Of a DNA stretch of 64,000 nt, positions 49-62,920 are shown one piece after another. Below the pieces are notes generated by a model. That model was not told the origin of the DNA. It searched no databases and saw only the letters and a program-made list of their open reading frames with translations. Positions within the stretch are counted from its first letter, which is position 1, and each line of letters opens with the position of its first letter. Position numbers and translations under genes: made by a program. Origin of the DNA: Amoebophrya sp. A120 (Eukaryota > Protista > Dinoflagellata). The DNA is taken from contig CAJINV010000006.1 in NCBI GenBank assembly GCA_905178155.1, positions 4,030,130 to 4,094,129 on the forward strand, read 5' to 3'.

Positions 49-3000
49 ATCGTACTGACTATCATATTCCCCATCGTCTTCTGCAACCGAGCTCAGCTGG
101 GAGCCCTTCTATAACGCGCTCAGGTGTAGTTACAATCTCAAACGTTACGAATAGAATCTGGAATTTGTGTTGCAAAATGTGCAACATCTGGCCAACTCCC
201 ACAGGAGCGCGCATGACAAGTTTCGGAGCTCCAAACCACATGAGAATCTGGCGAAATTTGTATTGCGAAAACCCCAAGTCTCTGTACGGTACTCATGCTG
301 TTTATGCAAGACAAATTTCAGATTCTATTGTAAAACGTTTGAGATTGTAACGTCTGAGCAAGCCATACCTTCTGCGACCCCTTTTTCCTCTTTGAAGCCC
401 TGGTGCCCGTCGTTGCGCTAGACGCCGTGCTCGACCGGACACTGCTCATCATCTCCTGAGAGCCATCTTCCGTGCCGTCGTAGGATTGCTCGGTCTCTCC
501 GGAAGTCAGCACCGTCCCCCGGGACATCGAGCTCCTCCGGGAGCTCCGGCTCTTCCGGCCCTTTATGTATGCTGTGCAAAAGTATCGCACTCGTAGTAAT
601 TGCAATCATGCATCACAAAACTTTTTCTTAAGGTAAATCAGCATGAGAAACTCCTTTTGTCATGCTGCGAAAATTTGTAATGCGATTTCTACTAGTACGA
701 TGCTTTTGCAATGCATATCATCTCCTCGCCGGCGAATTCCGATTTCCTGCCCTTTTTCCCTTTGCCCTTCATGGTCTCCCGTTTCTTTAAGATCGGCCGC
801 AAATCCGGATTTTCTTCCCGGAACTTCCGCAGTCGTTCCTCGGATTCCAGCGCCTTTTCCTGCACCGCTTTTCTCATCAGTGAGAGTTGCCGGTACATGC
901 GCCAGGTTTTTTGAATCGTGATGGCCGCCCCGTTATGCATTGCAAAAGTATCGTACTAGTAGAAATTGCAATACAAATTTCCTTAGCATGAGAAATGGCA
1001 TTTGTCATGCGGATTTGCCTTAGCAAAAAGATTTGTAATGCAAGACTTGCATTCATACGAGTACGATAGTTTTGCACACGATACCCGTTCTGGTCGTTTT
1101 GCCGCATGGTCCTTCGTGCCCGCTTCTATCAAATGCAAAAATGTCTGGGTCTGGAAGGTTGGAGCTTGTGATGCTAACTTTGGACTCTACAAAAATCTGT
1201 ATTGCATGATCAGCAACAGGAGTCTAGTTTGTGCTACGCGGGGAGGGCATTTGTCATGCGGAATAGGCATCAGGAGGCTTTCTAAAAATCTGTGATGCTA
1301 GGTCATGCATTACAGACATCCTGGGTCATGCAAAATATGCATGACAAACCCGGAAACATTCCAGACCCAGACATTTTTGCATTTCATAGCTTCATCTCGT
1401 GAATGATGATCGCGGTGATCAACCCGACCGGCGCGCCTAGGAACCCCGTATGAACGTGCGCAATTCCCCCTCGTTCTCATTTCTCATGCAAAATCCAAAT
1501 CCAGTTGTTCCCTTGGATCAGTATTATGCATGACAAATGCTGGAAGCTGCCCAAACACAGCACTACAATCCGTGCATAAACTTGTCATGCACAGCATGCA
1601 CGTGCGCTGGTGTTTGTATTGCTGTTCATGCTATACAAATGAGGGGGAAGGGGAGGGGGAGGGGGAGCTATGTGCACTCTCATACCCCGTCATGAAAATC
1701 CACATCACAAAGTGGATCAACCTGGCCAGCAAGCAGTACTCGACGAGCGGGTAGTATCCAGAAAAAAAAGCGTGTAAGTGTAACTTTCTTTGAGGAACAG
1801 CATCACAAATTTGCTCTACATGACAGAGAAAACCTGTCATGCGTGGTTTGTAAGGGAAAACACACAGGAAAAGAGGACTTCATGGCTGTCTGGCATGACA
1901 GGCGTAACTCTGTTGCATCTTCTGCAAGACAAATTTACACTTACACAGTTTTTTTCTCGCGATAGGTAGTCCCCGGTGGAGTGAATCATCATGAACTGCA
2001 ACGACGCGACGAAGGAGTAGTATCGGGATCTTAAAGACGATTCCTCTTCTTCCGCTTCCGGAGCTAAATCCACCGCGTCATACTCACAGAGACGGTATCA
2101 ACTGCAAATTATATGTCTGGGTCTGCAAGCGTGGAGCGTTAGTTTGTCATGCACATTTTGCATGACCCATGATGTTTGTGATGCATGCCCTAGCATCGCA
2201 GGTTTTTCACGGCCTTCTTGATGCCTATCCCGCATGAGAAATGCCGTCTCCGCATAGCAACAACTGGAGTCCTCTTGCTCTTCATGCTATACAAATTTTT
2301 GTAGTATCCAAAGTTAGCATCACAAGTTGCAATCTTCCAGGAGACCCAGACAGATTTGCAATGCATAGACGGATGAAGTAGGTGAAGATGAGGAGAAAAC
2401 AAATGAACCCGTAGAAAATGCACCACAGCTCGGTGCCGTATTTCGTGAAGATTCTCAAAAGAATCCGCAGGGAGGGGGAAAACCGATCGATGACGCAGAT
2501 GATGAACATCCGGGCCGCGACGGCGAAGGCCGCAATATCCTCAATCCCCTTCCGCGGATCGTTGTCTGAAAAAGTGATGTAGAGGTTTCGCGAATAGACC
2601 CGCATAATGGACGTCGTCGCCGCGGCGATCAGGAACACCCCGTGCCCGAAACCGGCTAGGGTTCGGCAGTACCAGAGATTGGCCGCGGAAAACGTGGCGA
2701 GAAGGAAGTCCACGAGGAGCAAGAGAAGGACGATCAAATCCAGCCACTTCATGAACCGGGCTAGCAACTGACTGGGCTCGAACCCCATCAGCTCCTCGAT
2801 ATCGTCGACGTAATCGACATCGTAGAATTGCAGAAACGAAAACCATATCCAATGCAAATACGTCTGGGTCTGGAAACTTGTGATGCCAAAATGTGCATGA
2901 CTGAAACGCTTTCGAATGCAGCCAAGCATGACAAGTTCTTGCAACGCGGTCTCAGGCGTAGCGCGCATGACAAACTGCGTTTTTGCATCACAAAGAACAC

Positions 3001-6000
3001 TGTGCATTTGTTAAGTAGTCATGCAATACAGATTTCCTTGGAATGTAAGGCCAGCATCACAAGTTCACTTTTTCCAGACCCAGACGTCTTTGCAATTGAT
3101 AAACCAGTCATCGGCATGGGTTTGTTCCTTGAGGTCCGCCATCGCCTCGTCCTTGCTGACGGTGAATTTCGCTAAATGATCGAACTCATCCGCGGGTAAG
3201 TAAACCTGGAAGAGCTTATCCTTCAAGAAAGCCGCATTGGTCGCAGTAGCCCTGTCGTAGACCTTCTTCTCGACATCGCTTGTCGGGTTCGCGTTCCTCG
3301 CGGCTTGAATCGTGAACGGCTTACGCGCTGCACTTCTCGTTACCAATTTTGCGACGATCTTGAATTTGTCACTGTCCAAGAACTATGCATTGCAAACATG
3401 TCTGGGTCTGGAAACTTCTGTTGCTGATGCTTGCATTGCAGACTGGCTGCTGGTACGGCACAAGAGCATGAGAAATTTCCCTCGGCTCCTTGCGGAGCAC
3501 TCATTCGTATTTAGCATGACAAACTGCCTTCCAGCACGATAAGAAAGCCGATCCATCGCATGCATGCATTACAGATTTTGTCGTCCTTCAAAGTTCGCAT
3601 CACAAATCCAGGCCCAGACATATTTGCATTTGATAAAAACTTTGCCTCGGTCGCAATCATCACCGACGCGAGTTTGTTCAGCGACTTCTTAATCTCCTCA
3701 GTGTTGTTTTCCTGCAGCATCTTGTTGAGCGACCGGATGGTAAACCAGATCCTTAGATTCTCCGGGTGCTTTGTCAACCCCGCACTGACGCCGGGAATCT
3801 TGCCCTGCAAGTGCGCAATGTGTCCCCCCGCTTGCTTGAACTGCCGCATTGTCCGCCCTATCAAATGCAAATATGTCTGGGCCTGGGAATTTGTAGTGAT
3901 GCTAAAAAGTGCAAGAGGAAAGCACTTCCTCATGCAGGAAAGCGTGACAAGTTTGCAGAACGCTTTCCCATACGAATTTCGCATGAAAAACTGCGTTTTT
4001 GTATGACATGAGAGGCTACCGCTTTTGTTGGTCATGCAATACAGATTTCACCGGAATGCAAGACCAGCATTCAAAGTTTGTTCAGAACTTTCCAGACCCA
4101 GACATATTTGCATTTGGTACGCCCGAACTCGTGCAAATTGTGCGAGTGGTCGTGGTTGCCGGGGAAAAAGGTTTGGCTTTCCTTCTTTTGAATAAAGGCA
4201 CGCGGGGGGCGGAAGGAGGAGTCGTCGTTTCCTTCTTCTTCTGCCTCCGCTTTGCTGCTTCGCATCTGTGCCTCGACTGCCTGTCTGTGCTCCAACTCCG
4301 CGAACTCTAATTCCACTTCTTCCACCGTTTTCACCAATTTTTCCACCGGTGTCTGCCACCACATGCTCTGCAGAATCTGCGACTTGGCGTGGGTGCTCGC
4401 GAACTCGAAGGAGTCATTTAGCATCTGCAAGTCTTGTTTGAGCTTTTGTTTCTTCGATAATTTCAGTTTTAGCTTCTTTTTTTCCCGCTTTATTTTCAAT
4501 TGCAGAAACGCGCCGGGCTCTTCGTTTTCGTCGCCCTCCTCTTCACCGCCGTCGTCATGGTCATCACCCTCTTCGCCACCATCGTCGTCATCATGGTGTT
4601 CCGAACCGTCGTCGTGCATCTCATCATCTCCATGCTCATCGTGATCGTCGTGCTCCTCCTCCTCGTCCCCACCATCTGCACCTCCACCGTTATTCATCAT
4701 TCCATTCGCCGCCATCGCGCCGGCCGCCCCAGCAACCGCCCCGGCTCCCGCAGCTCCTGCTGCGCCCAACTGTCCATTTAGCCCCGCGCTCCGGGCGCTC
4801 CCGGAGACCGCGCGGGCTTCTTGCGGGATCAGCCCCGCTTGCGCCGCCTTCTGTATGATGGTGGCGACCACGGGCTTGGGTAAAGGTTGCCCCGCTTGGG
4901 TCGTGACCTGCACGATTTCGTCCACGGAATAGCCCTTCTGCGCCAATTTGACCACATCTCCGGGCGTGATCTTCTGACCGGGAACGGAGGGGTCCAACTT
5001 TCCCGGTGGGGACGAGTTTTCTTCATCCTGATGCTCAGCAGGCGTGTTGAGTTGCCCATGATCGTCGGAGTGATCACCTTCATCGGTGTTTTCAGTACCT
5101 TTTCCACCGCCCTTGCTCGGGTTCGCAGCCCCATTCGGAGGGGCATCGGTCATGGGCTGCTCTTCGTCGGTGAGAACGGCGTCTAAATCGGCCTCGCCAT
5201 CCTTTGCACCGGCGGCTTCGTCCTTTTCCCTTTGCAGTTCCTCCTCGTCCTCCAGCTCTTCTTGTCTTTTCCTCTCCTCGTCCTGGCGTTTTTTGTCCTT
5301 CTCTTCCTCCGCGACAATGTTGATGTCCGAAGAGTGAATCCCGTCGGTCAGAGGCTCTTGAACAGTCGTCGGCGGCGTGTTGGATTCGACCGGTTTTGTC
5401 ACCGGGTTGTCGGGGATTTGCTGCGCGATGTTGTTCATCGCGATGATAGCATCCGGGTGCTGCACTCGCTCCGTGTGGAGAATGTGCACGTCCGTCATCC
5501 AAGAAAAAAACTGTGTAAGTGTAGCTTTCTTCGGCTGACAGCATCACAAATTTGCTCTGCATGACCACAGAGAAAACCTGTCATGCGTGGTCTGTAAGGC
5601 AGAACACACTTGGAAAGAGGACCTCGTGGCTGTCTGGCATGACAGGCGTAACTCTGTTGCATGTTCTGCATCACCGATTTACACTTACATAGTTTTTTTC
5701 TTCCATATCCGTCCGCATCAATTCATTCAAAAACCGATCCGATCCGTGCTGCTATCAACTGCAAAAATGTCTGGGTCTGGAAACTTGTAATGCTGCGTTG
5801 GGAATAGTGCATGCTCTGTAATGCACAGGCAAGCATGAGAAATATCTGCCCTTCTTTGTGTTGCGTTTTTCGCATGACAAACTGCGTTTTTGCATGACAG
5901 GCGAAAGGGTCTCGTCTTGGAAACGCATCACAAACTTTTTGGTCATGCCAGACAAGCATGACAAGTCTCGCAATCTTCCAGACCCAGACATTTTTGCATT

Positions 6001-9000
6001 TGATAGCTGCGTCATGATTGCTACCTCCAATGCAAACCCGCAGTTGTGTTCCTGCTTCAAGGGCAACACCAGCCCGATCTCGTGCGCGGATTGGGAGATG
6101 TGGGTTTTCAATTGCTCCACCATGCGAAACCGGTCGAGGTATTCCACGTGGTCTAGATCGAACGCCATGGCAACCGTGTATTGTGGCGGGGCAGCGGGAC
6201 CCGCAGCTCCGGCGCCATTTGCCGCCTATGAAGTGCAAAAGTATCGTACTCGTATGAATGCATGACAAATTCCCTCAGCGTGAGAAATAAAATTTGTATT
6301 GCGGATTTACCTTGAGAAAAAAAATTGTAATGCATGACTGCAATGACTACGAGTACGATATTTTTGCACAGGATACCGCCTGTTCCGCGGCGAACTCTTG
6401 TTCAATCGCCGCTTCTATCAAATGCAAACATGTCTGGGAGTCTGGAAACTTGTAATGCTAGAAGTGAATGATATGCGCACTTCAATACGCAGCCAAGCAT
6501 GACAAGTCTTTAAGCTGCTACGTGTTTCGTTTTCCGCATGGCAAACTGCGTCTTTGCATGACACGCAAGAGGCCCTTCTCCTGCTCATGCATCACAGATC
6601 TAAGAGTTCTGCCACACAAGCATAACAAACTTGCACTCTTCCAGGCCCAGAAATATTTGCTGTGCATAGCTTCCGCGACATCCTCATCCGTTGGTGCTGC
6701 AGCTGCTTTTTTCTCCTTCTTATCTTTTTTGTCCTTCTTGTCCTTTTTGTCTTTCTTATCCGCCCTACTCTCCACCCGGGAAGACAATCCCATCGCCTCT
6801 GCGGTTTCCAATAACGTCTGGAGGAACGAGGAAGAACTTAGCGGCTCGGCCGCTGCACCAGCAGTTCCCCCCTTCGCGCCGCCAAACGGTTTTTCGTACT
6901 TAAACGCGTTTATCACTAGGTCCACATCTTCGGACCTTTGCTTCGGCAAATGTTTCGAGGTCAATCCCACCATTTCGCAGGTCTGCCGGGCGTTCCAATG
7001 CGTGATGTAGCAGGCGTCATCCGTGACGGGGAGAGGGAGGTAGACATCGGAGGAAGACCACAGCCCTGCACCGGAAAGCTCCTCGGGCTTCGTGACTTCG
7101 AAGTCGCCGATGTCATCGTCTGCGTCGCCCCAGTACCTTTTGATTATATGGTGAAAAATTTGTCATGCGGAGATGCGAAATAGAATCGGATAAAACTTGT
7201 CATGCGCATCGACTACGAGTATCACAGTACAAACTCTACCTAGGATCCTCCTCATCGTCGTCGTCCAAATTGTGGTCTGCATGCTCCACGTGGTGCTCGT
7301 CTACGTGGTGAAAATCCGGCTGCTCCCGGATCGTCAGCCGTATGCTGAGCAAAAACGTCCCCATCCCAGAGTCAAGTTGGCAACTCAGCAAAAGAAATCC
7401 AGAAGTTTTGGGGACGACGCATGACAAGTTTCTCTCTGTACTGTAGTACAGGCGGGTAGCAGGCACAGCCGCATAGCAAAGCCATTCTCCTATTCTTCTC
7501 ACAGCATTACAAATTCCAAAACACGACTGGAAATGCCTGTCATGCGGGCGCGTATTCCAAATGTTGCTGTAAATGTAATTGCCAATCTGCATGACAACTC
7601 TGGTATGGGGACGTTTTTACTCAGGATAAGCCGCATCTGCTTGTTATCCCGCAACTGGTATGAATTGCAAAAGCACTATCGTACTAGTAGGAATTGCATT
7701 ACAACTTTCCTTAGCATGAGAAATGGGATTTGTAATGCTGATTGACCTTAGGAAAAAGATTTGTAAATGCATAGCTGCAATTACTACGAGTACGATCCTT
7801 TTTTACTAGATAACTGGCTGTTCTCGCGCGCGCAGACCATAAACCGATCCTCGCCGTGGGAGAATTTTTCGATCATGGCGCGGTTCATGAACGCGTGGTT
7901 GGTAGGGATGTCTAACACCCGGAAAAACTTCGTGACGTACTGCTCCCCGACCGCGTCCGCTATTGTGAGGAAAAATCCCGCCTCCCCATATTGAAAGCGC
8001 ATTTTTCTGAAAATCTGTGATGCAGATTTGTAGTCACAAATCCGGTCTGTCTTGCATGAAGGCAAATCCAGAGACTCCGCCGTATTACGCAGGCGGTTTG
8101 TAATGCTGTTATGCCTACACCGTCGACGTTTTGAATGCTAGGGGCCTACGCCAAAACCTCGCGCCTCAGGCTTGGCATATGCCTGCAGTCCTCTACTGCA
8201 AGACAAATCTGATTTGTATACTGAGATCCAGCATCAGAAACTTCGTTTTGATATGTGGAGGGGGGATCTTTCCTCTTGATATCCGCCCAGGATATTTCCG
8301 ATCCGTATCGATGCTGGTACACCGCTGCGTCGTAGGCGCCGCGGAAGTATGCATTGCAAATATGCCTGGGTCTGGAAACTTGTGATGCAAGTCAGGGAAC
8401 ATTGCGCACATTGTGATGCACTACCGAGCATGACAAATCTGTCCGTGGTTCTGAGTTGCGTAATCCGCATGAGAAAGTGCGTCTTTGCATGACAGGCAAG
8501 AGGAGCTCTTTGCGGCCACGCAATACAGAGCGCGGAGTCATACCAGACTAGCATGACAAATCTCACAATCTCGAAGGCCCAGACATCATATTTGCAGTAG
8601 ATAGAAAGCGGTACTTGACGTTTTTGTGCAAGCGAACCGCGCCCGTTTCTTCGTCGATCTCCATCATCTTGTATCAACTGCAAAAGTGTGTGATTCTGGA
8701 AGAATGCCAGACTTGTCATGCACGTTTTCCATGACCCACGAGCTCTGGTATGTAGGACATACCATGACAGATTCTGTGAGAGTTCTATCATGCCTATCCT
8801 ACATGAGAAATTGCCTCGCGATTAGGTCAAAAGTGGACAGCTTTTGGTAATCATGCAACACAGACTTTTACATGATTCAGATTTAGCATGACAAGTTGCT
8901 TTGTTCCAGACCCAGACATTTTTGCATTTGATATCTTGTCGCCGGCGTCTTCCCCAGTGGGTGTCGTCGACTTCACCGGAGTCAGTGCCCAGAACATCGT

Positions 9001-12000
9001 ATCCACAGCAAACCTACCGTATAATAGACTGTGTACTGGCGTTATTTCTGCATGACAAAACTTTTCCCCAATAGTCACGCAGCATGACAAAAGTACGTAG
9101 TTCAGATTGGCAAAGTTAGTTGTGATGCATTCTGTCCATTGATAATACGGTAAACTTGTCTTGCATACATGGCCATCTGGTTGAACTCATTTTGGTAGAC
9201 GGAGTCCTGGTCTCCCATCCCGATAGCGATGAATTTTTTGTCGCGGTAAAAATTCTTGGGCGGATCACCAACCTCGTAGGGAAAGTCAGATTTGATTTCT
9301 TCCGGTGGGGTTTTTTTCAAATCCCGCGTCATTTTCCGCGGCGTGTGTAACGCTTTCGCGTCCTTCGCGGCCATTTCCTCGGCTTCTCTCGTGCTGTTCA
9401 CGTCCACAATGAGCTTTCTCTCCGTGCCCTCAAAGTACTCTGCGGTCGTCCCCACCTGGATGAGAGACAGCTCGTGCTGCAGCTCCGGCACCATCAGAAT
9501 CGCGGTGTACCCGTGGCAGGTGTAAACAGTCGTGATCGCGATAGAGAGGAAAACCAAGATCCCGACGAAAATGGAGTAGAGTCGGCCGTACTCCGTGTTA
9601 GTCGTCCACATGAATTCGTACCAGCCGCTTCCAAGGGGAGTTTTGTCGGAGCGTTCCGGTAACAATTCTTCAGCTAACTCCTTGTCCTGCAACATTTTCT
9701 CGTGCTTCGCGTACCACTCGTCTTCTTCCTCCTCCTGGGTTTTCTTGCTCTTCTTCCCGCTCTTCAACATGGAGGAAGCGAACCCGGAAGTGTACGCTGA
9801 AGTCGCGCCGGTTTGCTGTGACGTGCGTAAACTAGACCGGTACAACTCGCTATCCATGCCGCTGGAGCCCGGTTCTTGGGAGTCGTAGGACTGAAGCGCA
9901 CTCCCCTCCGGGTAATTGCCTGCTCCTGGACCGAAGGAAGCGCTGCTGTCCGGGTACGCTCCGTCTTCGTCGTAGTTCTGACTGTCGTACCCCTCGTAAT
10001 TGCTGGCCTTGTGCTTTCCTTCCTTCTGGTGCTTATCTTTCGACGCCGGAATTATTTTCCGTTTCATCCAAGTCTTCACATCTTCTTTGTCTTTCCGCTT
10101 GTTCGTAGAAGTTTTTTTTGCACCCGATGAAATTTTAGACGACGACGCGGTTTTATTCTGCTTCTTGTGGTCGCCCTCGGAGTAGTAGAGCTGTTGCCCG
10201 TACTATCGCAAGAAAAAACTGTTTCACTGTGAACTTATGATGCATAGAACGGAACGCAAATGCGTTTGTCCTGCTACACATGCAAGACATTGGATTTTTA
10301 GCTGTGTTTTCCCTTAGGAAGCACGCATGCCAAGTTTTCTTTGTCATGTGTAACAAACTTGTGGTGCAGATCTTGCAAAATCGTCACAGCGAAACAGTTT
10401 TTTCGTGGGATACGTACTCCGACATCTGCCCGTCGGATTGTCCGTATCCCCCGGCACTGTAGCCCGCGTCCGAGGCACCGTATCCCTCCTCATCGTTGTA
10501 TTCCTCCCCATTCTCTTCATTTGCGTCGTACTCTTCGTCGTATTCCCCAGAAGCGCCTACTCCGCTCTCCTCATTTTTCTCCGTCTCGTCGCTCGAGTCT
10601 TCTATCCTATTTGAAAACATCCCCACCCCATAGCTGTCATGCAGATTTGCATCTACAGAAAAATCTGTAATGCACATCCGCAGGAGAGCAATTTGTAGCC
10701 GTGTTCCGGGAAGATTTGTAATGCTGTAAACAGGATGAGCAGGCGTCTTTGTGATGCTGCTGTCCTTGCTAAACAGCACTACACTACAGATGGAAACTTG
10801 TCATGCGTAACTCCCAAAACTCGAAGATTTGTGTTGCAGATTTATCAACTTGACTATGTATGGTGTGGGGACGTTTTTACTCAGGATATCTTCGTCATCA
10901 TCGTCATCGTCGTCGTCGTCGTCGTCCGAGCTCGACATCTCGTCCGCGAAGTAGGCTTATCCACTGCAAATATGTCTGGGTCTGGAAGGTGGATGCAAAC
11001 TTGTTATGCTAACTCTGAATCGTGCAAAAATCTGTGTTGCATGAACCGCAAAAGTTACCCAGTTCTTGCCACAAGATTCAAGTTTCTCATGCGGCTTTTG
11101 CAAAGAACTTTGTGATGCAGCTTCTCGGTGCATTTCTGACCATCTTTGTGATCCACGAGATGCATGACAAACTTTGCTCTCTGTCTTCCAGAGGACCTCG
11201 ACATATTTGCAATTCATAAGGCTTGTTGCATGTAGGATTGGTAAGCGGAGGCGAACAGTCCCGCTGGCAAGGCAAAGATTGCTCCGGCGTATAAATACAG
11301 AATACAGTGAAACGCCCGGCTCATGCCCTGGCCGGAGAAATCATCCCAGGGGGCCTCGCCCGTCAGCGTTAACCCCGTGACCCACATCGCCTTCTATCCT
11401 GTGGAAAAACGTCCCCACGCCAATGCAAATGCGCCATGACAGGAACATTTGTCATGCGCATCTCCATGAGAGGCATTATTTATCTCCAATCGTAATATTT
11501 TGGACTTTGTAATGCTGTAACCAGGATGAGAAGGCGGCTTTCTCATGCGGCTGCCCTTGATGCTAACCAGAACTACCCTGCTGGTGGAAAAAACTTGTCA
11601 TGCGAAACAACCAAAGTTTGTCGATTTGTCTAGCAGATTTCCCATCTTGACTAACGAGTGGGGACGTTTTTCCTCACAATACCTTCCCCGGCGACCCCAT
11701 CCATTCCAAGCGCATCTCGTCGTTGGGGTTTTATCCAGGAAAAAAACTGTCTGTGTAAGTGTAACTCTGTAGGGAAAATAGCATCACAAATTCGCTTTGC
11801 ATTGCAGGGAAAACCTGTCATGCGCAGCCAGTACGTGAAAACACCTGTGAAAGTAACCTATGACGCAGACCCAGCATGACAAGCGTATAACAGTTTTGGA
11901 CTTTCTGCATCACAAACTTACACTCACATACTTTTTTTCTTGCGTAGGTTTCGAATCTCCATCAGGGACCAAAACGCCGCGGCGATCAGCAGAATAGAGG

Positions 12001-38351: not shown

Positions 38352-42181
<3,830 letters not shown>

Positions 42182-49375: not shown

Positions 49376-51409
49376 TTACACCGTCTCGTTCCGCGTCCAT
49401 CCAAACCGGACGTAGTCCTTGACAATCCGCATCAGCGGCTTGCCGTAGTGCGGGTGGTCTTTTACCTGGCCAAACGCGTCGCCCTGCCGAATTCGCAGCA
49501 TGCACATCACCGCCAGCGTCCCGAGGCCGTACCGCGAGGCGACAATCAAAAGGGACAGCAAGAGGTTCAACCAGGTCGGCAAGCTGTGCGGCGCCTGGCA
49601 GCAGATGAACAAGACGGGGCACATATCCTGTGCAAAAACGGGGCCCACACCCAACAGTTGATGTCATGCAATAAACCTGCATTCATAGTCCCCTAAAAAT
49701 GTTTCTCATGCGCAGCCACGACCATATAATGAGGGCCGTTTTCTAATGCTATATCTGGGAGTTTGTCTTCGTCATGCTGGAATCAGGATAGGGTAGTCGA
49801 TTTGTGATGCGGTTCCACTAGTACGCTACCTGAAACAAGATTTTTACACTAAGAGCCCAGATACTTGTCATGCGAAGCAGCAAAAACTTCGTGATTTGTG
49901 TAGCGAAGCCACTATCTTGACTCTGGGGAGGTGGTGACGTTTTTACTTAGGATAGGACAAGAGCCACAGGGGATGCATCACAGCCAGGAAGAGCAGCTGC
50001 AGTCCGTAGATACTGACTAAGGCGATTAGATACTCAACCTTCACGCCGGTCTTTTTCACCATCCAGAGGTATGGGGGTGTCACAGGATCGAAATCGTGTC
50101 AACGTTAAATAAAGTATTTTGTCATGCATAAAATCCCAAACAAAAATCGCCTCTGTTGCAGAGGACGCAAGGGAGGCAGCTCGTAGTGCTGGCAAGGGTC
50201 GAGAATTTGGCTGCTGATTAGCATGACAGAGGGGACGACGAGTCCTTCTCCTGTAACCAGCGTGACGGAAACTTGCTTCAAAGGCAAAGGAAATTTGTCA
50301 TGCGCCGACTATAAACGGTGGGCCCAGGCCCAACTGGTAAATCGATTTTATGCATTACAAATTTTTTCCACCTTGTCGATTTCGATCCTGACTCTTCTCC
50401 CATAAGAGGTTCAACGCCGGTAGGACTAAAGAGAGAAACCCAACCGGAATTAGCAAGCCGGTCGGGACGCCGGGAAGCCAGGGATTGGCAACTACATTTA
50501 CCCCAACATTGGCCGCGGCGATATAACGCTGGCCGTAAAACGAGTACGACACATTGATGTTGCGGAAAAAATCGTTGAGGAGCGGAGTGTATCAACTGCG
50601 AATATGTAGTCCGGGTCTGGTGGGATGCAAGGTTTGCGTTTGTCATGCTTGTCTGGCATGACTGAAGCAATTGTGATGCGTGTCCAAGATAAAGAGACCC
50701 TTTTTCATCTTGTCATGCAAATAAACGCAGCTTGTCATCGACAAAAGCTACAACACTAAGCAGCGCAGATACAACTTCTCATGCTTTACAAGTTTCTACA
50801 CCCAGATATGTTTGCAATGACAGAAAACTGGCGTGCTTGGGTGTAATTAAGATGCATGACAGACTTGAGGGCTATAAAAATGCTGGTCGAGCATGCCAAA
50901 GTTTGCAGCGCTCTTCCACCAGACCCATATTACATTCTTGCATTGCATAGCGTGTTCGCGAATTCCACCCCGAAAGCAAACAGAATCGCGCCAACACCCA
51001 GTTCCAGTAGCGAGGTGAGCAACAGGGCAACCAGCAGCCAGGTGGCGCAGGTGTTCAGAAGCGGTTTATTGTTCTCACCAGCATCCACCGCCGGCGCTTG
51101 GACAAAGTTCGCATGATTCCCCGCGGAGGAGGCCACACAACCTACAGGAGTTCCCTGCACAACAACTTGCTGCACACCGCTGGCTTGCTGTTGATGGTGG
51201 TCTACCAACATGTGGGTCTGCTCGTGATCATTCTGCATCGACTCGGCGTAGAAACTCTGTTTGCCCGAACAAATCGCGCCGGCCTGGAGCATCTGCTGCA
51301 GCTCCGCGTCGTGGTTGTCAACGTCGGCGATGTGAGTGCCCGCGGGCATAGGTTCTCCTTGCTGGTTCATTTGCTGCTGCCGATCTTGCGTGTTCATAGT
51401 TTGTGTCAT
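49376..51409 (-). CDS. Hypothetical multi-pass membrane protein with Q-rich N-terminus
   Basis: ORFs 50930..51409, 50355..50552 and 49376..49654 joined across elements 50590-50949, 50070-50404, 49624-49954; about 4 hydrophobic segments. Confidence 0.6.
49624..49954. mobile_element. Introner family C, degenerate
   Basis: TSD GCACA/GGACA. Confidence 0.8.
50070..50404. mobile_element. Introner family H
   Basis: TSD AGAGG. Confidence 0.88.
50590..50949. mobile_element. Introner family A, degenerate or composite
   Basis: TSD GAGTG/GCGTG; extra internal right-TIR remnant near 50800. Confidence 0.75.
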
Positions 51410-52465: not shown

Positions 52466-54506
52466 TCAGTCCTTAAAAAAGCGCTCGTACTCGTCGTGAC
52501 CCTCCTCATTGTCCTCGAAAAAGTCCGCCGGCTCAACTTTTCCCTTGTTCGACGAACTGCAGCCCTTCGTCTTGTGCGCAAACGCGTTGCGATGGACGAT
52601 GTGCACTTCCTCCTCCTCATCCTCAAAACCGTCCAAGTTCGCATCGTTGTAGTAGTAGGTTTTATTCCCCGGTTATCGCAAGAAAAAAGTGTTACAGTTA
52701 CACATTGCGTTGCAGGCCAAGCAAGACAGGCAAGCTCTGTCATGCCGGATATGCATAGGAGCCTCGTTTCATAGGCGTTTTCCCGTAGGATTTCTGCATT
52801 ACAAGTTTTCTCTCTCATGCAGAGAAATTTGTGTTGCTGAATTCACTACAAATGTGTAACTGTAACACTTTTTTCGTTGGATACCGGTGCAGATGATCCA
52901 TCCGAAGATCTGAAGCCGCTGGAGATCGTGGCCTGCTCGTATCCTTCGTTCAAACCGAATTGTTCCGCCTCGCCGCTCTCCCGCGCGATGGCTTCTCGTG
53001 CAGACGCGGCATCATGGTGGGACGTGATCGTGGCTGCGGCAAGCGGTGCGCCGATCAGGTGCGTGACATCCCAGACAAACTGTTCCTCCGCTGGGATTAT
53101 CCATTTTTGGAGAAGTATTGAACTGTAGCTGTAGCTGTACCAGTACAAATTGCATGACAACTTCTTTTTATCTTTGAAAACTAAATTTGCCATGTAGATT
53201 CCCGTAGTACAAGACAATGACAACTTGCATACAATACTTTTATTGCAGAAATGGGATAGGTTTCCAGCAAAAGAGTGTGTAGCAGCAGCCGCAGCAGAAA
53301 AACTCCATCAGAATCACGATCAAGATGTCCACAGCGTTCGAGCATCCCTGCCACGCGTAGACGGCGCAGAGGGGAAACAGACAGTGACAACAGCGGTCCA
53401 GCGGGTGATAGCGGCAGCAGCTGCTGCAGCAGCACTCCAGTTCCTCCGTCACATATCGCGAGGAAAAATCCCCCCTCCCAATATCGAAAAGGTACGCCGC
53501 AGAAAATTTGCAATGCTGATTTGCGACCACAAATCATCTCTGTCTTGCAAGAAGGCAACTCCGCAGGCTCCGCCGCATTATGCAGGCAGCTTGTGATGCT
53601 ATTAGGCCTACAGCGCAGACGTTTCTCATGCTAAGCGCCTAGGCCAAAACCTCTGTTCTCAGGCTTGATATAGGCCTGCAGTCCTCGTCTCCAGCAAGAC
53701 AAATCCGATTTGTGTACGCAAATCCAGCATCACAAACTTCGTTTTGATAAGGGGAGGGCGGGAGATTGTTCATTTTGATATCACACTCCGGAAACGCTTT
53801 TGGGATTCGTTCGGTTGCCAAAACAGGAGGAAGATGTATGCATTGCAAATACGTCTTGGTCTGGAAACTTGTGATGCAAGTCTGGGAATGGTGGGCGCAC
53901 TGCAATACGTAGCCAAGCATGGCAAGTTTTTGAGCGGCTATGTAATTCGTTTTCCGCATGGTAAACTGCGTTTTTGCATGACAGAGAAAAGGCTCTACTG
54001 CTGCCCACGCAACACAGATTTCAGAGTCTGTCTGAATCATGTGAGACACGCATGACAAACTTGCATTCTCCCAGACCCAGACATATTTGCATTTGATAAG
54101 ATGAAATACCGCACGAAAACCAAGGACGCGACGACCAGCACCAGACACGTCGGACCGAGAAGCGCGAAGGGGAAGACGAACCCGTAAATAACGGGAAAGG
54201 CAAGCCACTCAATCAGCACCGCCAGGACAATCGTGTTCCGATCGCATCTATGCAGTGCAAAAGTATCGTGCTCGTACTAATTTTTGCGTTTATGCATTAC
54301 AAATCTTGTTTTTTAGGCCAATCCGAATTACAAATTTGATTTGTAATGCTAAGTCAATTTCTTGTAATGCACTTTATACTAGTACGATACTTATTCTGCA
54401 ATGCATAGCATCCCTCCCACGCAAACACAGCCATCACTGGGCAACAGGCTTTGCAGAGCCCGCTGGTCGGCTGGCAACCACAACATTTGTCGAACTCGAC
54501 TGGCAT
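52466..54506 (-). CDS. Cys-rich membrane protein with two Pmp3/UPF0057-like hairpins (paralogue A)
   Basis: MPVEFDKCCGCQPTS...CCPVMAVFAWEGC...CLFPLCAVYAWQGC...NKGKVEPAD...ERFFKD*; frame restored across 5 elements. Pmp3 resemblance judged by eye. Confidence 0.65.
52674..52883. mobile_element. Introner family I
   Basis: TSD CCGGT. Confidence 0.9.
53098..53258. mobile_element. Degenerate B-like introner
   Basis: TSD GGGAT/GGTTT; frame restored (CWKPAEEQF). Confidence 0.7.
53454..53780. mobile_element. Introner family F
   Basis: TSD TCACA. Confidence 0.9.
53837..54098. mobile_element. Introner family A
   Basis: TSD AGATG. Confidence 0.9.
54249..54407. mobile_element. Introner family B
   Basis: TSD GCATC. 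Confidence 0.9.
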
Positions 54507-55548: not shown

Positions 55549-58041
55549 CTAATTTTTGAAAAATTTCTCGCCCTCGTCGTCGTCAGCTGCATGGTGATCG
55601 ATGAAACCATCTTCGTCCGCGGGTTGGACTTTCCCCTTGTTGCGCGAGAACGAGCTCTGGGGGCCCTTCGCGACGACCTTCTTGTCCTTCTTCTGCGCAA
55701 GCACAGCATATCGAAAGGAAAAATCCCCTCTCCCCATATTGACAAGGTACGTTTTCGAAAATTTGTGTTGCTGATTTGTGACCACAAATCGTCCCTGTGT
55801 TGCATGAAGGCAACTCCAGAGCCTCCGCCGCATTCTCCGGGCGGTTTGTCATGCTCATGTTCCTACAGCGTAGACGTCTGTCATGCTAAGCGCCTAGGCC
55901 AAAACTTTTCTTCTCAGGCTTGATATGAGCCTGCAGTCCTTGCCCAGCAAGACAAATCGGATTTGTGTACGCAAATCCAGCATCAGAAACTTCGTTTTGA
56001 TATGGGGAGGGGCGATTTTTCATTCTGATACAGCAGCGGGATGCTTTTTGCGGTGGTGTACGTCTCCTTCTTCTTCCTCCACGAACTCGTCATCGTTGTA
56101 GAAGTAGTACCCGTATCCTGTGCAAAAGCGTCAAAAACGCACTAGTGATTGCAATATTTTTGCATGCCAAATCTCGTTCCCTAGATAAAATGGCACGACA
56201 AGCTCCGGAATTTGTTTTCGAAAAAATTTGTGTATGCATTTGAAACTAGCGCTCGACGCTTTTGCAATGCATAACCCGCCTCTGTTGTAGTCGTAGGTCT
56301 TGAATCCGTGCGCCCGGGCCGGGTCGTAGTAGGTATCCGAGTGGGTGATCGGATCGAAGTCGTCGTTGCCCACCCCGTATCAAATGCAAATGTGTCTGGA
56401 TGTCTGGAAACTTGTGATGCTGGTTGCCGGATCAAGAGAACGCCACAAATGACGGCTCAGCATGACAGGTTTTTGAGCTAATATGCTGGTTATTGTCCAC
56501 TCTGCATGAGAAACTGGGTTCTTTTGCACGACAGAAAAATGCAAAAAAGGCGCTTTAATATTTGGGTACCTTGCATGACAGGCTTGACAGTCATACAAGC
56601 AGAGCATGACAAACCTGGCATTTTGTTTCCAGACCCAGAGGACATATTTGCAATGCATACCTCGTAGTTCCCGTCACCCCAAGGCGAAGGACCTTCGCGT
56701 GAGGCCCCCGCAACTATCGGAGCACCGATGACATGCGCCGAATCGCCGCCCCAGATGAGCTATGGATTGCAGAAGTATCGCACTCGTATAAATGCATTAC
56801 CTCAGCATGAGAAATAAAATTTGTAAAAAAAAAAATGCTGATTCACCTATTATAAGTAATGCATGACTGCAATACGAGTACGATACTTTTGCACAGGATA
56901 TGAACTGTTGGTCAGCGGGTGTCCAGCAGCAGACTGGGTACAGGCACCCGCAGCCAGGTAACAGGCAGTTCAGCACGATCACACACAGAATGTCGACGAC
57001 GCTGCTACACCCCTGCCAGGCGTAGATCGCATGCAGCGGAAACCAGCAGTGGCAGCAGCATATGACAGTGCACAACTCCCCCTCCCCCTCATTTGTGTTG
57101 CACGAACAGCAACAGAAGCATCAGCAAGAATGCCGGTTCTGCATGAAAAATTTGCACTGGAGTGTAGCGCTATTTGGGCTACCACGACAACTTGTCATGC
57201 ATAATAGTGACAGGAGGGAAAGGGTGGATCGGGTATTCTGCATGAGAAATGAGAACGAGGGGGAGTTGTGCACTGTCATACAGCAGTCCAGGGGGTGACA
57301 ACGGCAGCAATAGACTTTCCGCTCTTTTTTCGCGTCGACGGGGTGAAACCGCTTCTGCGTCCTATGAGAGTGCACAACTCCCCCTCCCCCTCATTTGTCA
57401 TTCAATTTCCCAAATCCAGGCTCTGCCTCTTCTTAGAGGCACTGTCTGCATGACAAATTCTGGCATCCCAAATGGCACTACACTCCACTGTAAGTTTGTC
57501 ATGCGAAACCGGCATTCTACTTGCTGATGCATTTACTTCTGCCGTTCATGCTATACAAATGAGGCGGGGGGAGTTGTGCCTTGTCATACGTCCCCTTTGG
57601 CTGCCACAGTAACGCAAACAGGCAGCGACACGGACACCCAAGGGTATCGCACAGACAGGCCAACCACAAGTTGCTGCTGAACCCCTCCCACGCGAAGACC
57701 GCCAGGAGCGGGCAGCAGCATCGGCAGAGCAAGCTTATGAAATGCAAAAGTGTCTGGGTCTGGAAGGTTGGAACTTGTGATGCTAACTTTGGACTTGAAA
57801 AAGATCTGTATTGCATGACCAGCAAGAGGAGTCTAGTTTGTGCTACGCGGCGGGGAGGGCATTTGTCATGCGGAGTAGGCATCAGGAAGCCGTCTAAAAA
57901 TCTGTGATGCTAGGTCGTGCATTACGGACATTCTGGGTCATGCAAAATATGCATGACAAACCCGGCAACATTCCAGACCCAGACATTTTTGCATTTGATA
58001 CAGCTGGTCGGCTTGCAACAAGCATCTTGTTGGCGGGGCAT
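55549..58041 (-). CDS. Cys-rich membrane protein with two Pmp3/UPF0057-like hairpins (paralogue B)
   Basis: MPRQQDACCKPTS...CCPLLAVFAWEG...CWFPLHAIYAWQGC...NKGKVQPAD...EKFFKN*; frame restored across 7 elements; collinear with paralogue A. Confidence 0.65.
55709..56030. mobile_element. Introner family F
   Basis: TSD CAGCA. Confidence 0.9.
56114..56273. mobile_element. Introner family B variant
   Basis: TSD ACCCG. Confidence 0.85.
56378..56659. mobile_element. Introner family A
   Basis: TSD CCCCG/CCTCG. Confidence 0.88.
56761..56900. mobile_element. Introner family B
   Basis: TSD TGAGC/TGAAC. Confidence 0.88.
57061..57280. mobile_element. Introner family E
   Basis: TSD CAGCA; long near-perfect TIR. 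Confidence 0.9.
57363..57588. mobile_element. Introner family E
   Basis: TSD CGTCC. Confidence 0.9.
57736..58000. mobile_element. Introner family A
   Basis: TSD AAGCT/CAGCT. Confidence 0.88.
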
Positions 58042-59746
58042 GGTTGTCGCGATTGGTTCTTCGGGTGGAGATTACTTATCAATTTTTTCTTGTTCGATGT
58101 ACAACAAAGAGTAGAGCGGGTCAACAACTTTTTGTACAGTCCTTGTATTAAAACACCAGCACGACCTCAGTAGAGAGTGCCTTTTTTGCAATACTGTTCA
58201 ATTGAACAGGATCAATAAAAACTTCGATTGTGGGTGAGTGCCAGCACGAGTTTTTGTCCTTGCTACGTTGTTGATGGTGAATCGGTTTATTGTTGAGTCG
58301 TAGGTACACCAATTATGCGATCACTTGCGCCCACTACTCTATACATCATATAGGGCCGCCCACGACCCGTACATTTCTTGCGATGACACACGATGACGTC
58401 GATTACGACGACTTGTATAAGCGATTCGTATTCAGCAGATGAAGTGTGCTTTTTGTCATCTTTCTGATACCGCACACGTGGTTCTTATCTATTTACGACT
58501 AGAGCTTTCATCCACGACCCCGGTCAACCGAGCAGGAACGAAGATCGTGTTGAAATAACAAATTGGTACTTACAACACAAGATGATCCTTGGAAGTAGAA
58601 AAGTTCAGACGAAAGCAGTTCTGGACCTGCTTACACGACCACATTTTGAATGAGAATGATCATCGCGATGCATGATGGCATCGAGAGAACGAAGCGAAGG
58701 GGAAGTGGAACATGCGCGAAGCCACGCAAACACGGAAAGTTTACGTAAAGATGAAACCGGGTGGATATAATTACTTCTGCTCTCGTACTTGTTAATACTT
58801 GTTAAATATTGTACACAAATCGAGTGATCGCAACAAATCAGTACGGGTATAACCCTGCACCAGGGTTGCGACTGCGACACGACCAAATCAGCAAATGAAT
58901 AATTTACAATCGTATAGAAATCCTGAGTTAATTTTGTACAAAACGAATCGAATTTGTAGCAGCCAGATGTACACATGAAAATCCAAATCCAAAATAATTT
59001 CTGCGTATGCTTGCAAACTAAGCCTACCTGTCGTTTGAAATTCAATTTTCAGTCGTCGAATGCGCATCAAATTCATGAAAAGTCTTTTCTTCGAAATACG
59101 GCTACTTAGCTTCCTTTCTCTTCTACATGACGAGTTCCATTCACAGAGCTTATTGCCAAAGTAGTTAATGATCTTCATACTTTCATTCATTTCCATCATC
59201 TCTCCTGTTCTTTTCCACCAGTGAGTACTTCGTGCGTTTTTTACACCGTGTAGGTGCTTGGTGGTCGCGGCGGCAAGAGCGTCTCATCCTCATCGCTCTC
59301 CGCGATCGGCTCGATCTTTATGCCAGTGGAGAGAACCACGACTTTCCACCCTCGTAAGAAGTACTTCTCATTTGTAGTCATGCGGAAGGCCAAAGAACTC
59401 ATGTCTTGCTCTTGCTTCTTTTATATTGCATGACAAGTTGTTCATCATGAAACCGATAGATACCTATCTGGAATTTCGCTGTGAAATTTGTCATGCTTTT
59501 CTGTTGCAACTCTGCGAATGAGAACAACGAGGGGGGAAGCTGCTACTTGCAGTCATCTCCACTTTCGTACTTTTGCCCGTGTCTCGGGAGCCTCTCGCCC
59601 CGGGAATTCTTGACCTTCTGGAACCAAAGTGACCAGTAGTCGAGCTAGTTGTAGAGGCGGCTCCCCTGGTGCTCCGTCCTGACACTTCTTCTTCCTCCGC
59701 CTCTGGGCCGAGTTCTGCGCCCGGCACTGGCCGTAACCCGCAACAC

Positions 59747-60013
59747 TATCCAAGAAAAATAAATAATGTGTTAGTTCGCATTAAAAAATTTCAAGCCTCC
59801 CAGTACACTTCTCTTGTCACGCTCGATAATGATATGCTTATGCATCTTCATAGCAGGCTACTATTTATTCGTCCATTTGTGGTTTCATCTTCACACGCAG
59901 CTACCGAGACAAAATTTTTTGATTTGTCTGTCATGCGAGACATGTGAGGATGCTGTAGTTCATAATCCAGAAACAAGGCTAATAGTCTAACACAGTTTTT
60001 TTCCACCTGGATA
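59747..60013. mobile_element. Degenerate D-like introner (suggests an unresolved gene at ~59.2-60.1 kb)
   Basis: TATCCAAG...CCTGGATA; TSD AACAC/AGCAT. Confidence 0.6.
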
Positions 60014-60309: not shown

Positions 60310-62920
60310 TTACACGATCCCGCCCGATGATGCATGGCCGGAGATGTAGCGCGCGTCGCTCACCCCGTCGTCGCTGGCCTCTTCCAGCGTCCACCGCCCA
60401 TAGGCCGCTGCCGGGATGCCGAGAAAAAAGAGCAGGAAGCAGCGCGAAAACAGGCACCAGGTATCCATGTAGTAGAACGGAGCCGAGTTGGTGAACGCCT
60501 TCATGGTCAGCAAAGTCTTCATTCCCTGCCGCGCCGCTGAAGAGGTCCATCAAATGCAAAAATGTCTGGGTCTGGAAACTTGTGATGCTGGGTGGCGTAT
60601 CATGAGGAGGCCACAAGTGCTGGCTCAGCATGACAAGTTTCTGAGCTTCTAGGTGTTGCCTACTCTGCATGACAGACTGCGTTTCTGCATGACAGAAAAA
60701 TGGGGCTCTTGGGTAACGTGCGTGACAGATTTAAGAATCATGCCAGACAAGCATGACAAACATGCACTCTTCCAGACCCAGACACTTTTGCATTTGATAA
60801 GGTCATGAATACGGCTACAACCTGCAGGAGAAGGAGGAAGAAGAGCGCTAGAATTTAGAAAGAAAAAACTGCTTTAATGTGACAACTTCTTTGCAAGTTA
60901 TGCAATACAAGTTCGTATTGTCGTGACACATAGTTGCCATGCGTGCTTCCTAAGGCTAAAGGAATAAATTACGGCTACAAATCCACGGTCTTGCATGTGT
61001 GGCATGACAAACACGTCTGCGATGCATTTTCTGCATGACAAGTTTACAGTGAAACAGTTTTTGCTCGCGATATGGAAATGCGCTGTGTTTCACGCTGATC
61101 ACTTTTGCGAAGCAGACCAGGTACAGCATGCCGAAAGCAACCAGGGTGGAGAGGAAGCCGTTGCACTGTGCCTGAATGTATCAAATGTAAAAACGTCTGG
61201 GTCTGGACACTTGTAATGCTGCGTTGGGAATAGTGAATGCTCTGTGATGCACAGCCAAGCATGAGAAGTATCTGCGCTTCTTTCTCTTTGTGTTGCGTTT
61301 TTCGCATGACAAACTGCGTTTTTGCATGACAGGCAAGAAAAGGGTCTCTTCTTGGACACGCATCACAAACTTTTCGGTCATGCCAGACAAGCATGACAAA
61401 TCTCGCATTCTTCCAGACCCAGACATTTTTACATTTGATAGAATGGGGCCCATTGGAGCGGGACTTTTCATCACCGCCGCCTCCCCATGTGGTCCTTGCG
61501 GCCGCTCGTCTCCTATCAAATGCAAATATGTCTGGCTCTGGAAGATTGCCAGGTTTGTCATGCATATTTTGCATGACCCGTGCAGTCTGTGATGCGTGCA
61601 CGAGCATCACAGATTTTTAGAGTGCTTCCTAATGCCTATTCCGCATGAGAAATCCCCTCTCCGCGTAGCCCAGTCCTCTTGCTGGTCAAGCAATTATACA
61701 ATTTTTTTTTGAATCCAGAGACAGCATCACAAGTTTAGAATCTTCCAGACCCAGACACTTTTGCATTTGATATCTCCACCCTCGGGGGTTGTCGTTGTCC
61801 CGTCGCGCTCGGCCTCCGCTTTCGCGTCGGCGCTTTTCACAAACTGCAGCTTCTCGCCATATCCTGAGGAAAAACGTCCCAACCCCAGAGCTGTAATGCA
61901 AATCTACATGCTTAAATTGCTTCTCATGCGGAGACACATGAGAGGCGTTTTCTAGTGGCGATTGGAGATTTGTCATGCTCGAATCAGCGTCACAGACTGG
62001 GTCTGTAATGCCGCTGCACTAGCTAAACACGACTACACTGCGAGCCCAAATTTGTCATGCGCGATAGCGAAAGCTTAGGGATTTGTCTAGCAGATTTCTC
62101 ATCTTGACTATGGGGGGGGACGTTTTTACTCAGGATACGCCATCCGATGTGATCACCTTTCTCGGTAACAACACCGTCGCATATCCAAGGAAAAAACTGT
62201 GTTAGTAGGAGGAATAGCATCACAAGTTTGCTCTGCATGACAGAGAGAGCCTGTCATGCGCGGCTAGTACTACGTGAAAACACGTACGGAATTATATATA
62301 AAGAGGCTCTGACGCATGTGTCTAGCATGACAAGTGTAAACTGTTTTGCATTTTCTGCATCACAGACTTGCACTTACACAGTTTTTTTCTTGCATATCGC
62401 AGCCTGACCGTGCAGTGCTTTGGCCTCGTGCTCCCTCGTGAATCCGAATTGCAGATAGAGGACCGCAAACGTGACCTCGCAGGGGATAAAAACCAGCAGG
62501 AGACCGAGCAGCACAATGAGCATCGCCCGTCTGTGTCCGCTGGTTGCCGTCACCGACGCCGCTCTCGTCCGGGCCGCTATCAAATGCAAATATCCCTGGA
62601 TGTCTGGAAACTTGTGATGCTGGCTTGGCAATGGTGGACACACTGCGATACGAAGCCAAGCATGGCAAGTTCTTGAGCTGCTATAAATGTGTTGCGACTT
62701 CTGCACGGCAAACTGCGCTTTTGCATGACAGGCAGGCGACTCTCATCCTGCTCATGCATCACAGGGTGAGAAGTCATGAGAGACAAGCATGACAAACTTC
62801 CATTCTTCCAGACCCAGATCGATATTTGCAATGCATAGCCGCCTCCACCTGCTGAAACGCTTGAGACGCCTTCTTGGCGGCGGTTAGCCGCGAACTCGGG
62901 TCGTCGGCAGTCGCGTCCAT
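60310..62920 (-). CDS. Hypothetical multi-pass membrane protein
   Basis: MDATADDPSS...MLIVLLGLLLVFIPCEVTFAVLYL...TLVAFGMLYLVCF...ALFFLLLLQVVAVF...; frame restored across 7 elements into ORF 60310..60522. Confidence 0.55.
60548..60799. mobile_element. Introner family A
   Basis: TSD AGGTC. Confidence 0.9.
60854..61072. mobile_element. Introner family G, degenerate
   Basis: TSD TAGAA/TGGAA. Confidence 0.78.
61179..61440. mobile_element. Introner family A
   Basis: TSD GAATG. Confidence 0.9.
61514..61772. mobile_element. Introner family A
   Basis: TSD TCTCC. Confidence 0.9.
61860..62137. mobile_element. Introner family C
   Basis: TSD CGCCA. Confidence 0.9.
62182..62396. mobile_element. Introner family D
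   Basis: TSD TCGCA. Confidence 0.9.
62578..62837. mobile_element. Introner family A
   Basis: TSD GCCGC. Confidence 0.9.

Follow-up and report, generated by a model that had tools for sequence, protein, structure and literature searches.

A helix-phased internal box shared by the sampled introner families of Amoebophrya sp. A120

Amoebophrya A120 is an algal parasite and a known host of introners, which the accessible portions of two papers describe as non-canonical introns of about 240 nt with short direct repeats, belonging to many families (PMC7789003, PMC12130899). The A120 repeats begin with TAT, then seven variable nucleotides, then AAA (Farhat et al. 2021, PMC7789003), and in most of 22 of the 58 table rows the introners are classed as DNA elements with terminal inverted repeats (TIRs) of unknown superfamily (PMC12130899). 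Farhat et al. left open what moves the tens of thousands of A120 introners and how non-canonical introns are defined when no U1 is detected (PMC7789003). Here we describe a 64,000-nucleotide stretch of this genome (contig CAJINV010000006.1, positions 4,030,130 to 4,094,129; hereafter the window), whose genes are interrupted by many such elements. The elements are known; apparently new is a conserved, helix-phased internal box that is common to the sampled families and is not a general label of introns. The published descriptions, in the parts accessible, cover the terminal repeats but not an internal word, a spacing rule or a helical phase. GCATG and CATGC have no match in the text of PMC7789003 and GCATGACA and TGTCATGC none in its supplement, although its figures (S19, S25) could show the word; GCATGACA has no match in 12 of the 14 supplements of PMC12130899. 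No description of an internal motif in A120 introners was found in a literature search that left subscription journals and theses outside.

The closest parallels to such a box come from other DNA transposons, as far as the accessible parts of the sources go. Lemi1 proteins bind subterminal motifs of the miniature inverted-repeat transposable element (MITE) Emigrant (PMC1636448), which is likewise a non-coding TIR element with repeated internal motifs, bound cooperatively there by the mobilising protein. Emigrant, however, is one MITE family with a known pogo-like partner, whereas the word described here occurs in at least 11 lineages, over the whole element, and in introns. The BED domains of Hermes bind subterminal repeats (PMC10368747), and in hAT elements (Hermes, PMC10368747; Herves, PMC3143072) short boxes lie in both orientations inside the TIRs, with asymmetric ends, and are read by the transposase; the Hermes box measures 4 bp, against 8-10 bp here. 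The A120 boxes are also short repeated motifs inside the TIRs and are conserved relative to their flanks. Moreover, the non-canonical introns of Fritillaria and euglenids share with the window elements the TIR, the border duplication and the removal without GT-AG, and an internal phased box common to families is not described in the accessible part of that source (PMC11282704).

The window contains 88 curated elements with TAT...ATA ends. A 5-bp flanking duplication is perfect in 62 of the 88 and matches at four of five positions in 22, whereas other lengths from 2 to 9 bp are perfect in at most 11; the fixed 5 bp measured here differs from the 3-5 nt given for A120 introners in the accessible literature. 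TAT, seven variable nucleotides and AAA form the commonest end in 10 of 14 families, and families E, H, J and L have TAT without AAA. Contigs of the sets X4 and X1 skip exactly the element stretches (at least 15 joints in one comparison and at least eight in the second); these sets are called RNA-type by guess, no run being on record as RNA. The X5 and X7 contigs retain the GT-AG introns and lack all eight listed RNA-type joints. What the RNA-type contigs lack is the element plus one copy of its duplication, with non-canonical ends. At three joints (562-718, 3377-3635 and 40696-40966) the two duplication copies differ, and it is the one next to the 5' exon that is retained; the tightest of these joints sets the beginning of the intron 0-1 nt ahead of TAT. 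Raw RNA reads (X8-X10) contribute 3, 2 and 78 reads only, and most window introns are defined by reading frames, not by contig joints. When every TIR element is taken out along with one duplication, and the nine GT-AG introns as well, long frames appear on the minus strand, among them one of 3,802 codons across 41 introns; 87 of the 88 elements lie within gene spans (exon 23.7 kb), with one in the 17.4 kb outside. In addition, paralogous empty sites exist for elements in four related loci (L007, L021, L054 and L144), which shows insertion. The TIR, target duplication, short length, repetition and empty paralogous sites are those of MITEs. With the same organism, TAT ends, direct repeats and non-canonical splicing, the window elements are the published introner elements of A120 (Farhat et al. 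2021).

For comparison, at least 150 related loci (764,706 bases), all from one public assembly, were found by the family-A end in a scan covering 14 of 64 parts; none overlaps window non-intron DNA, and their selection by family A biases the family proportions. A motif-blind detector, 67 of whose 68 window calls are curated elements and which makes no call in 41,029 non-intron bases, yields 390 further elements in these loci. Window and loci together give 478 elements in 14 multi-copy families and six singletons. The superfamilies tried do not fit: hAT elements have 8-bp target duplications, against 5 bp here, and such a duplication is found in none of the 88 elements; Ginger/integrase-type DNA transposons have 4-6 bp duplications, which agrees, but their termini are TGT...ACA, not TAT...ATA.

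The sequence-only reading had noted one word, TGT[CGA]ATGC or GCAT[GCT]ACA, across unlike element families, concentrated in introns and rare elsewhere, and the counts bear this out. Introns hold 300 of the 303 strict matches in the window (154 versus 149 by strand). TIR elements contain 288 in 21,540 bp (13.4/kb; 100 dinucleotide shuffles give a mean of 6.2 and a maximum of 14) and the nine GT-AG introns 12 in 1,431 bp (shuffle mean 0.3, maximum 3). Exons, with one in 23,671 bp (shuffle 1.8), and intergenic or untranslated DNA, with two in 17,358 bp (shuffle 1.7), are at chance. At least one strict word is present in 84 of the 88 TIR elements, and the box fits a wider matrix, GCAWBACARR, with A nearly absent from the variable position (five matches). 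Elements carry 2-9 boxes, with at least two in 471 of the 478. The loci agree, with 1,197 strict matches in 106,365 bp inside family matches (11.3/kb) and 88 in 444,771 bp outside known families (0.20/kb). In the example element 16273-16524, six of the seven positions first proposed correspond to strict boxes (16314, 16345, 16378, 16398, 16437 and 16484), and the seventh, 16328, is GCATGACT, a near miss.

In all 14 sampled families the word GCAWBACA(AA) follows a common spacing grammar, an internal code that seems not to have been described before. In 13 of the 14 families, half or more of the copies have two boxes on the same strand at a distance of 30-33 bp, the modal distance being 31 or 32 bp; family J lacks such doublets. 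With one copy per family, the doublet is found in 11 of 14, against a null mean of 3.1 and a maximum of 9 in 5,000 draws. Phase was assessed on one architecture per family, the offset between strands being fitted (about 2.5 bp) and null draws optimised alike. The best period is 10.25-10.5 bp; at 10.5 bp the mean cosine over 109 pairs is 0.44 (null mean 0.10, maximum 0.34 in 250 draws), and at 11.0 bp it is 0.04. The cosine is 0.38 when doublets are left out, and 0.46 and 0.40 when related families are dropped. The first inward-facing box lies 32-36, 41-46 or 52-56 bp from the end (about 33, 42 and 54; n=19, R=0.70 at 10.5). Box number, order and orientation vary among families, and the phase is kept. 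The spacing periodicity that the sequence-only reading had proposed to measure is present, as helical phase and as doublets.

Boxes are also more conserved than the bases next to them. Nearest-pair comparison shows boxes differing at 0.15-0.47 times the spacer rate, whatever the divergence level. A comparison of orthologous copies was confined to the one element that loci L022 and L030 have in common, which falls in a bin of 100% identity and carries no information on the rates. Among 193 copies with four close neighbours, copy-specific changes affect 173 of 6,967 box positions (2.5%) and 1,536 of 22,315 spacer positions (6.9%), a ratio of 0.36. The same contrast is seen base by base and after exclusion of CpG. 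G1 and C2 change at 1%, and the variable position changes at the spacer rate. Target-duplication mismatches, which as an age clock do not track spacer divergence, occur in 23 of the 193 copies; the 1% rate is close to the neutral post-insertion rate that they give, so that selection in transposing lineages alone could suffice. Conservation shows function, not the time of action.

These results bear on common ancestry, which had been named as the finding that could dispose of a shared reader. Families E, J and L and families C and N are homologous beyond the boxes, and F and H probably are, as judged by profile comparisons (medians of 24-56 bits from the better-matching profiles, against 0-12 with spacers shuffled; the N/C and H/F similarity is weaker in the reverse direction). 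Their bodies are therefore not all unrelated, as first supposed, and the remaining family pairs score lower, usually above shuffled controls. About 11 lineages appears a fair count, and a deep common ancestry of the families is possible from these profiles; a motif-masked profile search gave one cross-family match but lost self matches too (family A kept 172 of 221), and was not used for independence. It is scarcely tenable that the word is an inherited, functionless remnant of one ancestral element. Although TAT ends and the 5-bp duplication are common to all families, E/J/L, C/N and F/H group together and faint cross-similarity is widespread, a remnant should not change 0.15-0.47 times as often as its spacers, unless through an artefact of mutation rate (the copy-specific contrast is seen for every base and without CpG), nor keep its phase while box number, order and orientation differ among families. 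Common ancestry holds for some families, and leaves the survival of boxes and spacing amid spacer divergence unexplained.

The boxes show no preference for the transcript strand. Transcription direction was assigned to 348 elements (87 in the window and 261 by gene model; 55 of 316 locus elements gave no single call), in which box sites number 806 on one strand and 750 on the other, and no family is significantly biased in orientation (the lowest p values are 0.06 for C and 0.07 for B). Family D, whose boxes point nearly all one way, is found in genes in both orientations (16:12), and 15 of 16 and 8 of 12 copies lack the opposite reading. Box changes by transcript strand are 62 of 2,602 and 53 of 2,189, both TIRs are equally conserved, and there is no 5'/3' asymmetry relative to transcription. 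The absence of strand bias together with the B-DNA period favours a reader of double-stranded DNA. A U2 branch point or an RNA splicing enhancer would require a fixed transcript orientation, which the boxes lack, and the RNA-binding protein that the sequence-only reading had allowed for finds no support in box number or conservation by strand.

A role on the pre-mRNA as branch point, enhancer or self-pairing arm that defines introns generally is very unlikely. We take GCAUBACA to resemble the yUnAy branch point, several families have a box 33-45 nt upstream of the 3' end, and predicted folds would pair 34-62% of box bases with another box (families A, B, C and F; 12 copies each). Family D, however, occurs in both orientations although one gives the complement alone, and only 11% of its box bases pair with another box; in addition, the period is 10.5 rather than 11, neither strand is favoured, and 100 of 111 predicted ordinary introns have no strict word.

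These ordinary, TIR-less GT-AG introns bear on the intron-definition code that the sequence-only reading had inferred. Six of the eight in the window carry the strict word, and in the loci 11 of the 111 predicted GT-AG introns free of family matches do so (3 of 44 in a stricter set). The predictions come from a motif-blind gene model that places seven of nine window GT-AG introns exactly but was trained on the window, and they are not RNA-checked. The 111 introns hold 14 strict matches, against a shuffle mean of 3.7 and a maximum of 8, about twenty-fold below TIR elements, and matrix sites occur in 16. The window rate is far above the loci rate; small sample size, strain or region may account for this. 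With about 90% of predicted ordinary introns lacking the word, and the intron 39939-40179 spliced without a strict copy, a general code fails. Box-bearing ordinary introns favour GTAT donors (12 of 44 versus 4 of 67, p=0.004), and local element density shows no link to their boxes (p=0.59). Three introns named as TIR-less word carriers were misjudged: 109-368 is a TAT...ATA element (110-367) of a 4-member family, at which the RNA-type contigs skip 263 nt; 9014-9168 lies inside the TAT...ATA element 9000-9167 and scores 22 bits against the family B profile; and 18836-19024 has no strict copy. The remaining box-bearing TIR-less introns are best taken for introners that are old or unsampled.

That the sampled families have one conserved box and its helical spacing in common points to one shared DNA-binding reader rather than dozens of transposable element types. 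We consider the boxes, at a probability of roughly 0.55, to be double-stranded DNA docking sites of a putative protein that mobilises all these families, or of its cofactor. The claim of the sequence-only reading that a common trans-acting factor reads the word is upheld by the conservation of boxes over spacers and by their common spacing and phase, and its shared transposase fits best, although no enzyme was found in the open reading frames scanned. By analogy with the subterminal repeats of known DNA transposons, several subunits of one transposase or cofactor would line up along a single face of the double helix and bring the catalytic site to the TAT end. Given such a reader, TAT ends and phased boxes would be all that a short DNA needs in order to be copied, and this would account for the many families with free spacers. 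For splicing, the ends (an intron beginning 0-1 nt ahead of TAT and a TIR hairpin) would matter and the boxes would not, and box-bearing TIR-less GT-AG introns would be decayed introners or unsampled ones. If so, the box array could serve as bait for a pull-down with exact mutations, and as a signature for old introners and the autonomous parent element.

Several observations weigh against this mobilising role. The 95 longest of 183 open reading frames from 551 kb of loci contain no Pfam transposase, and none is reported for A120 in the accessible part of PMC7789003; long TAT...ATA pairs span 631-5,542 bp, and one of them, at L067, resolves into three separate short elements. The boxes fill the whole element and not just its ends, a second period peak lies near 16 bp (0.36), and the distances to the end fit a broad range of periods (10-11 bp), with no such fit for boxes that face outward. 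Since the families are partly of common ancestry, the number of independent points in the spacing tests is smaller than the number of families. Box loss is higher away from predicted coding DNA (35 of 713, 4.9%) than in it (284 of 8,996, 3.2%; p=0.016), in a comparison of 22 non-coding with 257 coding copies that leaves 90 uncalled and in which some non-coding copies are probably gene-finder misses; spacers are also more diverged in the non-coding copies (10.2% versus 8.8%), and the faster loss is a weak hint of post-insertion selection. Finally, immobile TIR-less introns keep exact boxes in window and loci alike, and gaps of 31-33 bp make up 4 of 12 same-strand pairs in the loci; these intact boxes are the main fact that a reading by transposition alone explains poorly.

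In a rival reading, the phased boxes of an inserted element would be bound, on DNA, by a host protein that labels the stretch to be removed co-transcriptionally, replacing U1 at non-GT-AG introns, and array-bearing introners would be tolerated and spread; the marking protein could also be the mobiliser. We regard such a mark as possible, though doubtful. All DNA-level evidence fits it equally, boxes exceed chance in TIR-less introns, non-coding copies show the weak excess of box loss, and at least two boxes are kept in nearly all elements. U1 small nuclear RNA was not detected in A25 or A120 according to the accessible part of PMC7789003, and the duplication supplies GT-AG to only 8 of the 348 oriented elements, although the elements sit in coding DNA. 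The near-neutral rate at G1 and C2, however, would require no later selection, the boxes lack any asymmetry relative to transcription, seven elements with 0-1 box sit in coding DNA, and GT-AG introns, which would not need such a mark, sometimes carry boxes. Rather unlikely, in our view, is the still broader proposal that introns are defined on DNA, one transposase-like factor (domesticated or active) binding the boxes, copying the segments and marking RNA removal, with U1 lacking. Any TAT-ended, box-bearing insert would then be a silent intron in either orientation.

Boxes throughout the element and a period of 10.25-10.5 bp would also fit wrapped DNA, and with no transposase known in A120 from the accessible part of PMC7789003 the reader could be a chromatin, replication or transcription protein of the host, exploited for copying, bending or access, while the cutting enzyme reads the TIR only. 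Native sites would then be expected, yet the word is at chance in the intergenic DNA of the window, and the 53 residual locus matches (in 184,777 bp) include unrecognised elements. We judge this decidedly unlikely and return to a mobilising protein as the preferred reader. The coordinates of all features are listed below.

Table 1. Introner families, boxes of the example element, ordinary introns and the kinase gene, in window coordinates
Feature	Position	Strand	Remarks
Family A introners, 37 copies, 241-360 bp	1127-62837	.	several skipped by RNA-type contigs; starts 1127, 2096, 2846, 3384, 3859, 5753, 6416, 8348, 8672, 10958, 13580, 14704, 16273, 17197, 18178, 21828, 23032, 25861, 28667, 29127, 32223, 33132, 33599, 38820, 40702, 41505, 45468, 45964, 46321, 50590, 53837, 56378, 57736, 60548, 61179, 61514, 62578
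Family B introners, 15 copies, 140-171 bp	568-56900	.	568, 934, 6227 skipped by RNA-type contigs; starts 568, 934, 6227, 7659, 15675, 16982, 18508, 19288, 29810, 45764, 47430, 47620, 54249, 56114, 56761
Family C introners, 10 copies, 203-222 bp	1755-62396	.	1755, 5496 skipped by RNA-type contigs; starts 1755, 5496, 10204, 11732, 12860, 14358, 19471, 52674, 60854, 62182
Family D introners, 10 copies, 278-331 bp	7341-62137	.	boxes nearly all one orientation; starts 7341, 10603, 11395, 12362, 31878, 38377, 46717, 47085, 49624, 61860
Family E introners, 4 copies	1449-1684, 40263-40484, 57061-57280, 57363-57588	.	1449, 40263 skipped by RNA-type contigs
Family F introners, 4 copies	7961-8281, 15032-15347, 53454-53780, 55709-56030	.	
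Family H introners, 3 copies	37968-38275, 41816-42134, 50070-50404	.	41816 skipped by RNA-type contigs
Family L TIR introner	110-367	.	perfect CCTTC duplication, chance source of GT and AG
Family O TIR introner	41292-41452	.	
Singleton TIR intron	44997-45174	.	3 strict boxes; no recognisable target duplication
Singleton degenerate TIR intron	53098-53258	.	
Singleton degenerate TIR intron	59747-60013	.	
Degenerate E-like element	59319-59557	.	2 strict boxes; ends set by eye
Degenerate B-like TIR element	9000-9167	.	encloses GT-AG intron 9014-9168; 4/5 duplication
Box TGTCATGC in element 16273-16524	16314-16321	+	first of 31-bp doublet, 41 bp from TAT end
Box TGTCATGC	16345-16352	+	+31 from previous box
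Box TGTGATGC	16378-16385	+	+33 from previous box
Box TGTCATGC	16398-16405	+	+20 from previous box
Box TGTCATGC	16437-16444	+	+39 from previous box
Box GCATCACA	16484-16491	-	opposite orientation, +47, 33 bp from ATA end
TIR-less GT-AG intron	7137-7239	-	2 strict boxes 37 bp apart
TIR-less GT-AG intron	18836-19024	-	0 strict boxes, variants only
TIR-less GT-AG intron	29468-29629	-	2 strict boxes 97 bp apart
TIR-less GT-AG intron	32566-32698	-	1 strict box; from reading frame
TIR-less GT-AG intron, kinase gene	39538-39681	-	2 strict boxes 96 bp apart
TIR-less GT-AG intron, kinase gene	39939-40179	-	0 strict boxes; spliced
TIR-less GT-AG intron, kinase gene	41054-41250	-	1 strict box
TIR-less GT-AG intron	45323-45429	-	1 strict box + variant 32 bp off
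Calcium-dependent protein kinase (CDPK) gene	38355-42181	minus	exon identity to A120 protein

The element ends show further features. TIR positions 4, 5, 7 and 10 change often (0.13-0.37) and positions 11-13 hardly. Families A and B have a common end, TATGCATTGCAAA, which may mean end swapping between families. Altered termini at the transcript 5' end are TAT to TAC only (3859, 11732 and 12860), and those at the 3' end are ATA to ATG, AGA or AAA (5496, 12362, 47085, 60548 and 60854); these small numbers may outline splicing requirements. L011:739-1011 and L030:1865-2323 hold almost the same composite, built of boxes and palindromic arms and belonging to none of the named families; its length differs between the two loci.

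Viral contigs have no match to the family-A end. At least 120 doublet matches occur in them, none with a family-profile match, and the four richest contigs repeat one word in a single orientation, mostly in steps that are multiples of 15 bp. A possible link of the box to N6-methyladenine at VATB, considered in view of the avoidance of A at the variable position, does not fit the GCAA variants, and no paper on it was found.

A search of the window against Rfam gave no match. All 12 gene models of the window are on the minus strand, and the 153-aa CDPK exon is identical (100%) over its full length to an A120-labelled protein and 78% identical to A25. Counted from its first ATG, the minus-strand frame at 49-20949 runs to about 3,790 codons; it has 41 introns and abundant hydrophobic and acidic stretches. 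The gene at 24585-26409 is presumably GPN-type GTPase-like, as named from motifs, and two adjoining cysteine-rich genes (52469-54506 and 55552-58041) appear paralogous. At 42814-44245, about 1.4 kb lies between 39-bp direct repeats (95% alike) and resembles another kind of repeat, with raised X5 contig depth, an internal 41-bp inverted repeat and one strict box (43297); X1 and X4 depth is zero at 42956-43437. The stretches 20912-21673 and 23748-24485 form an 87% duplicate of 774 bp that takes in two gene starts together with the DNA upstream of them, and 20054-20206 and 23565-23711 are 93% alike.

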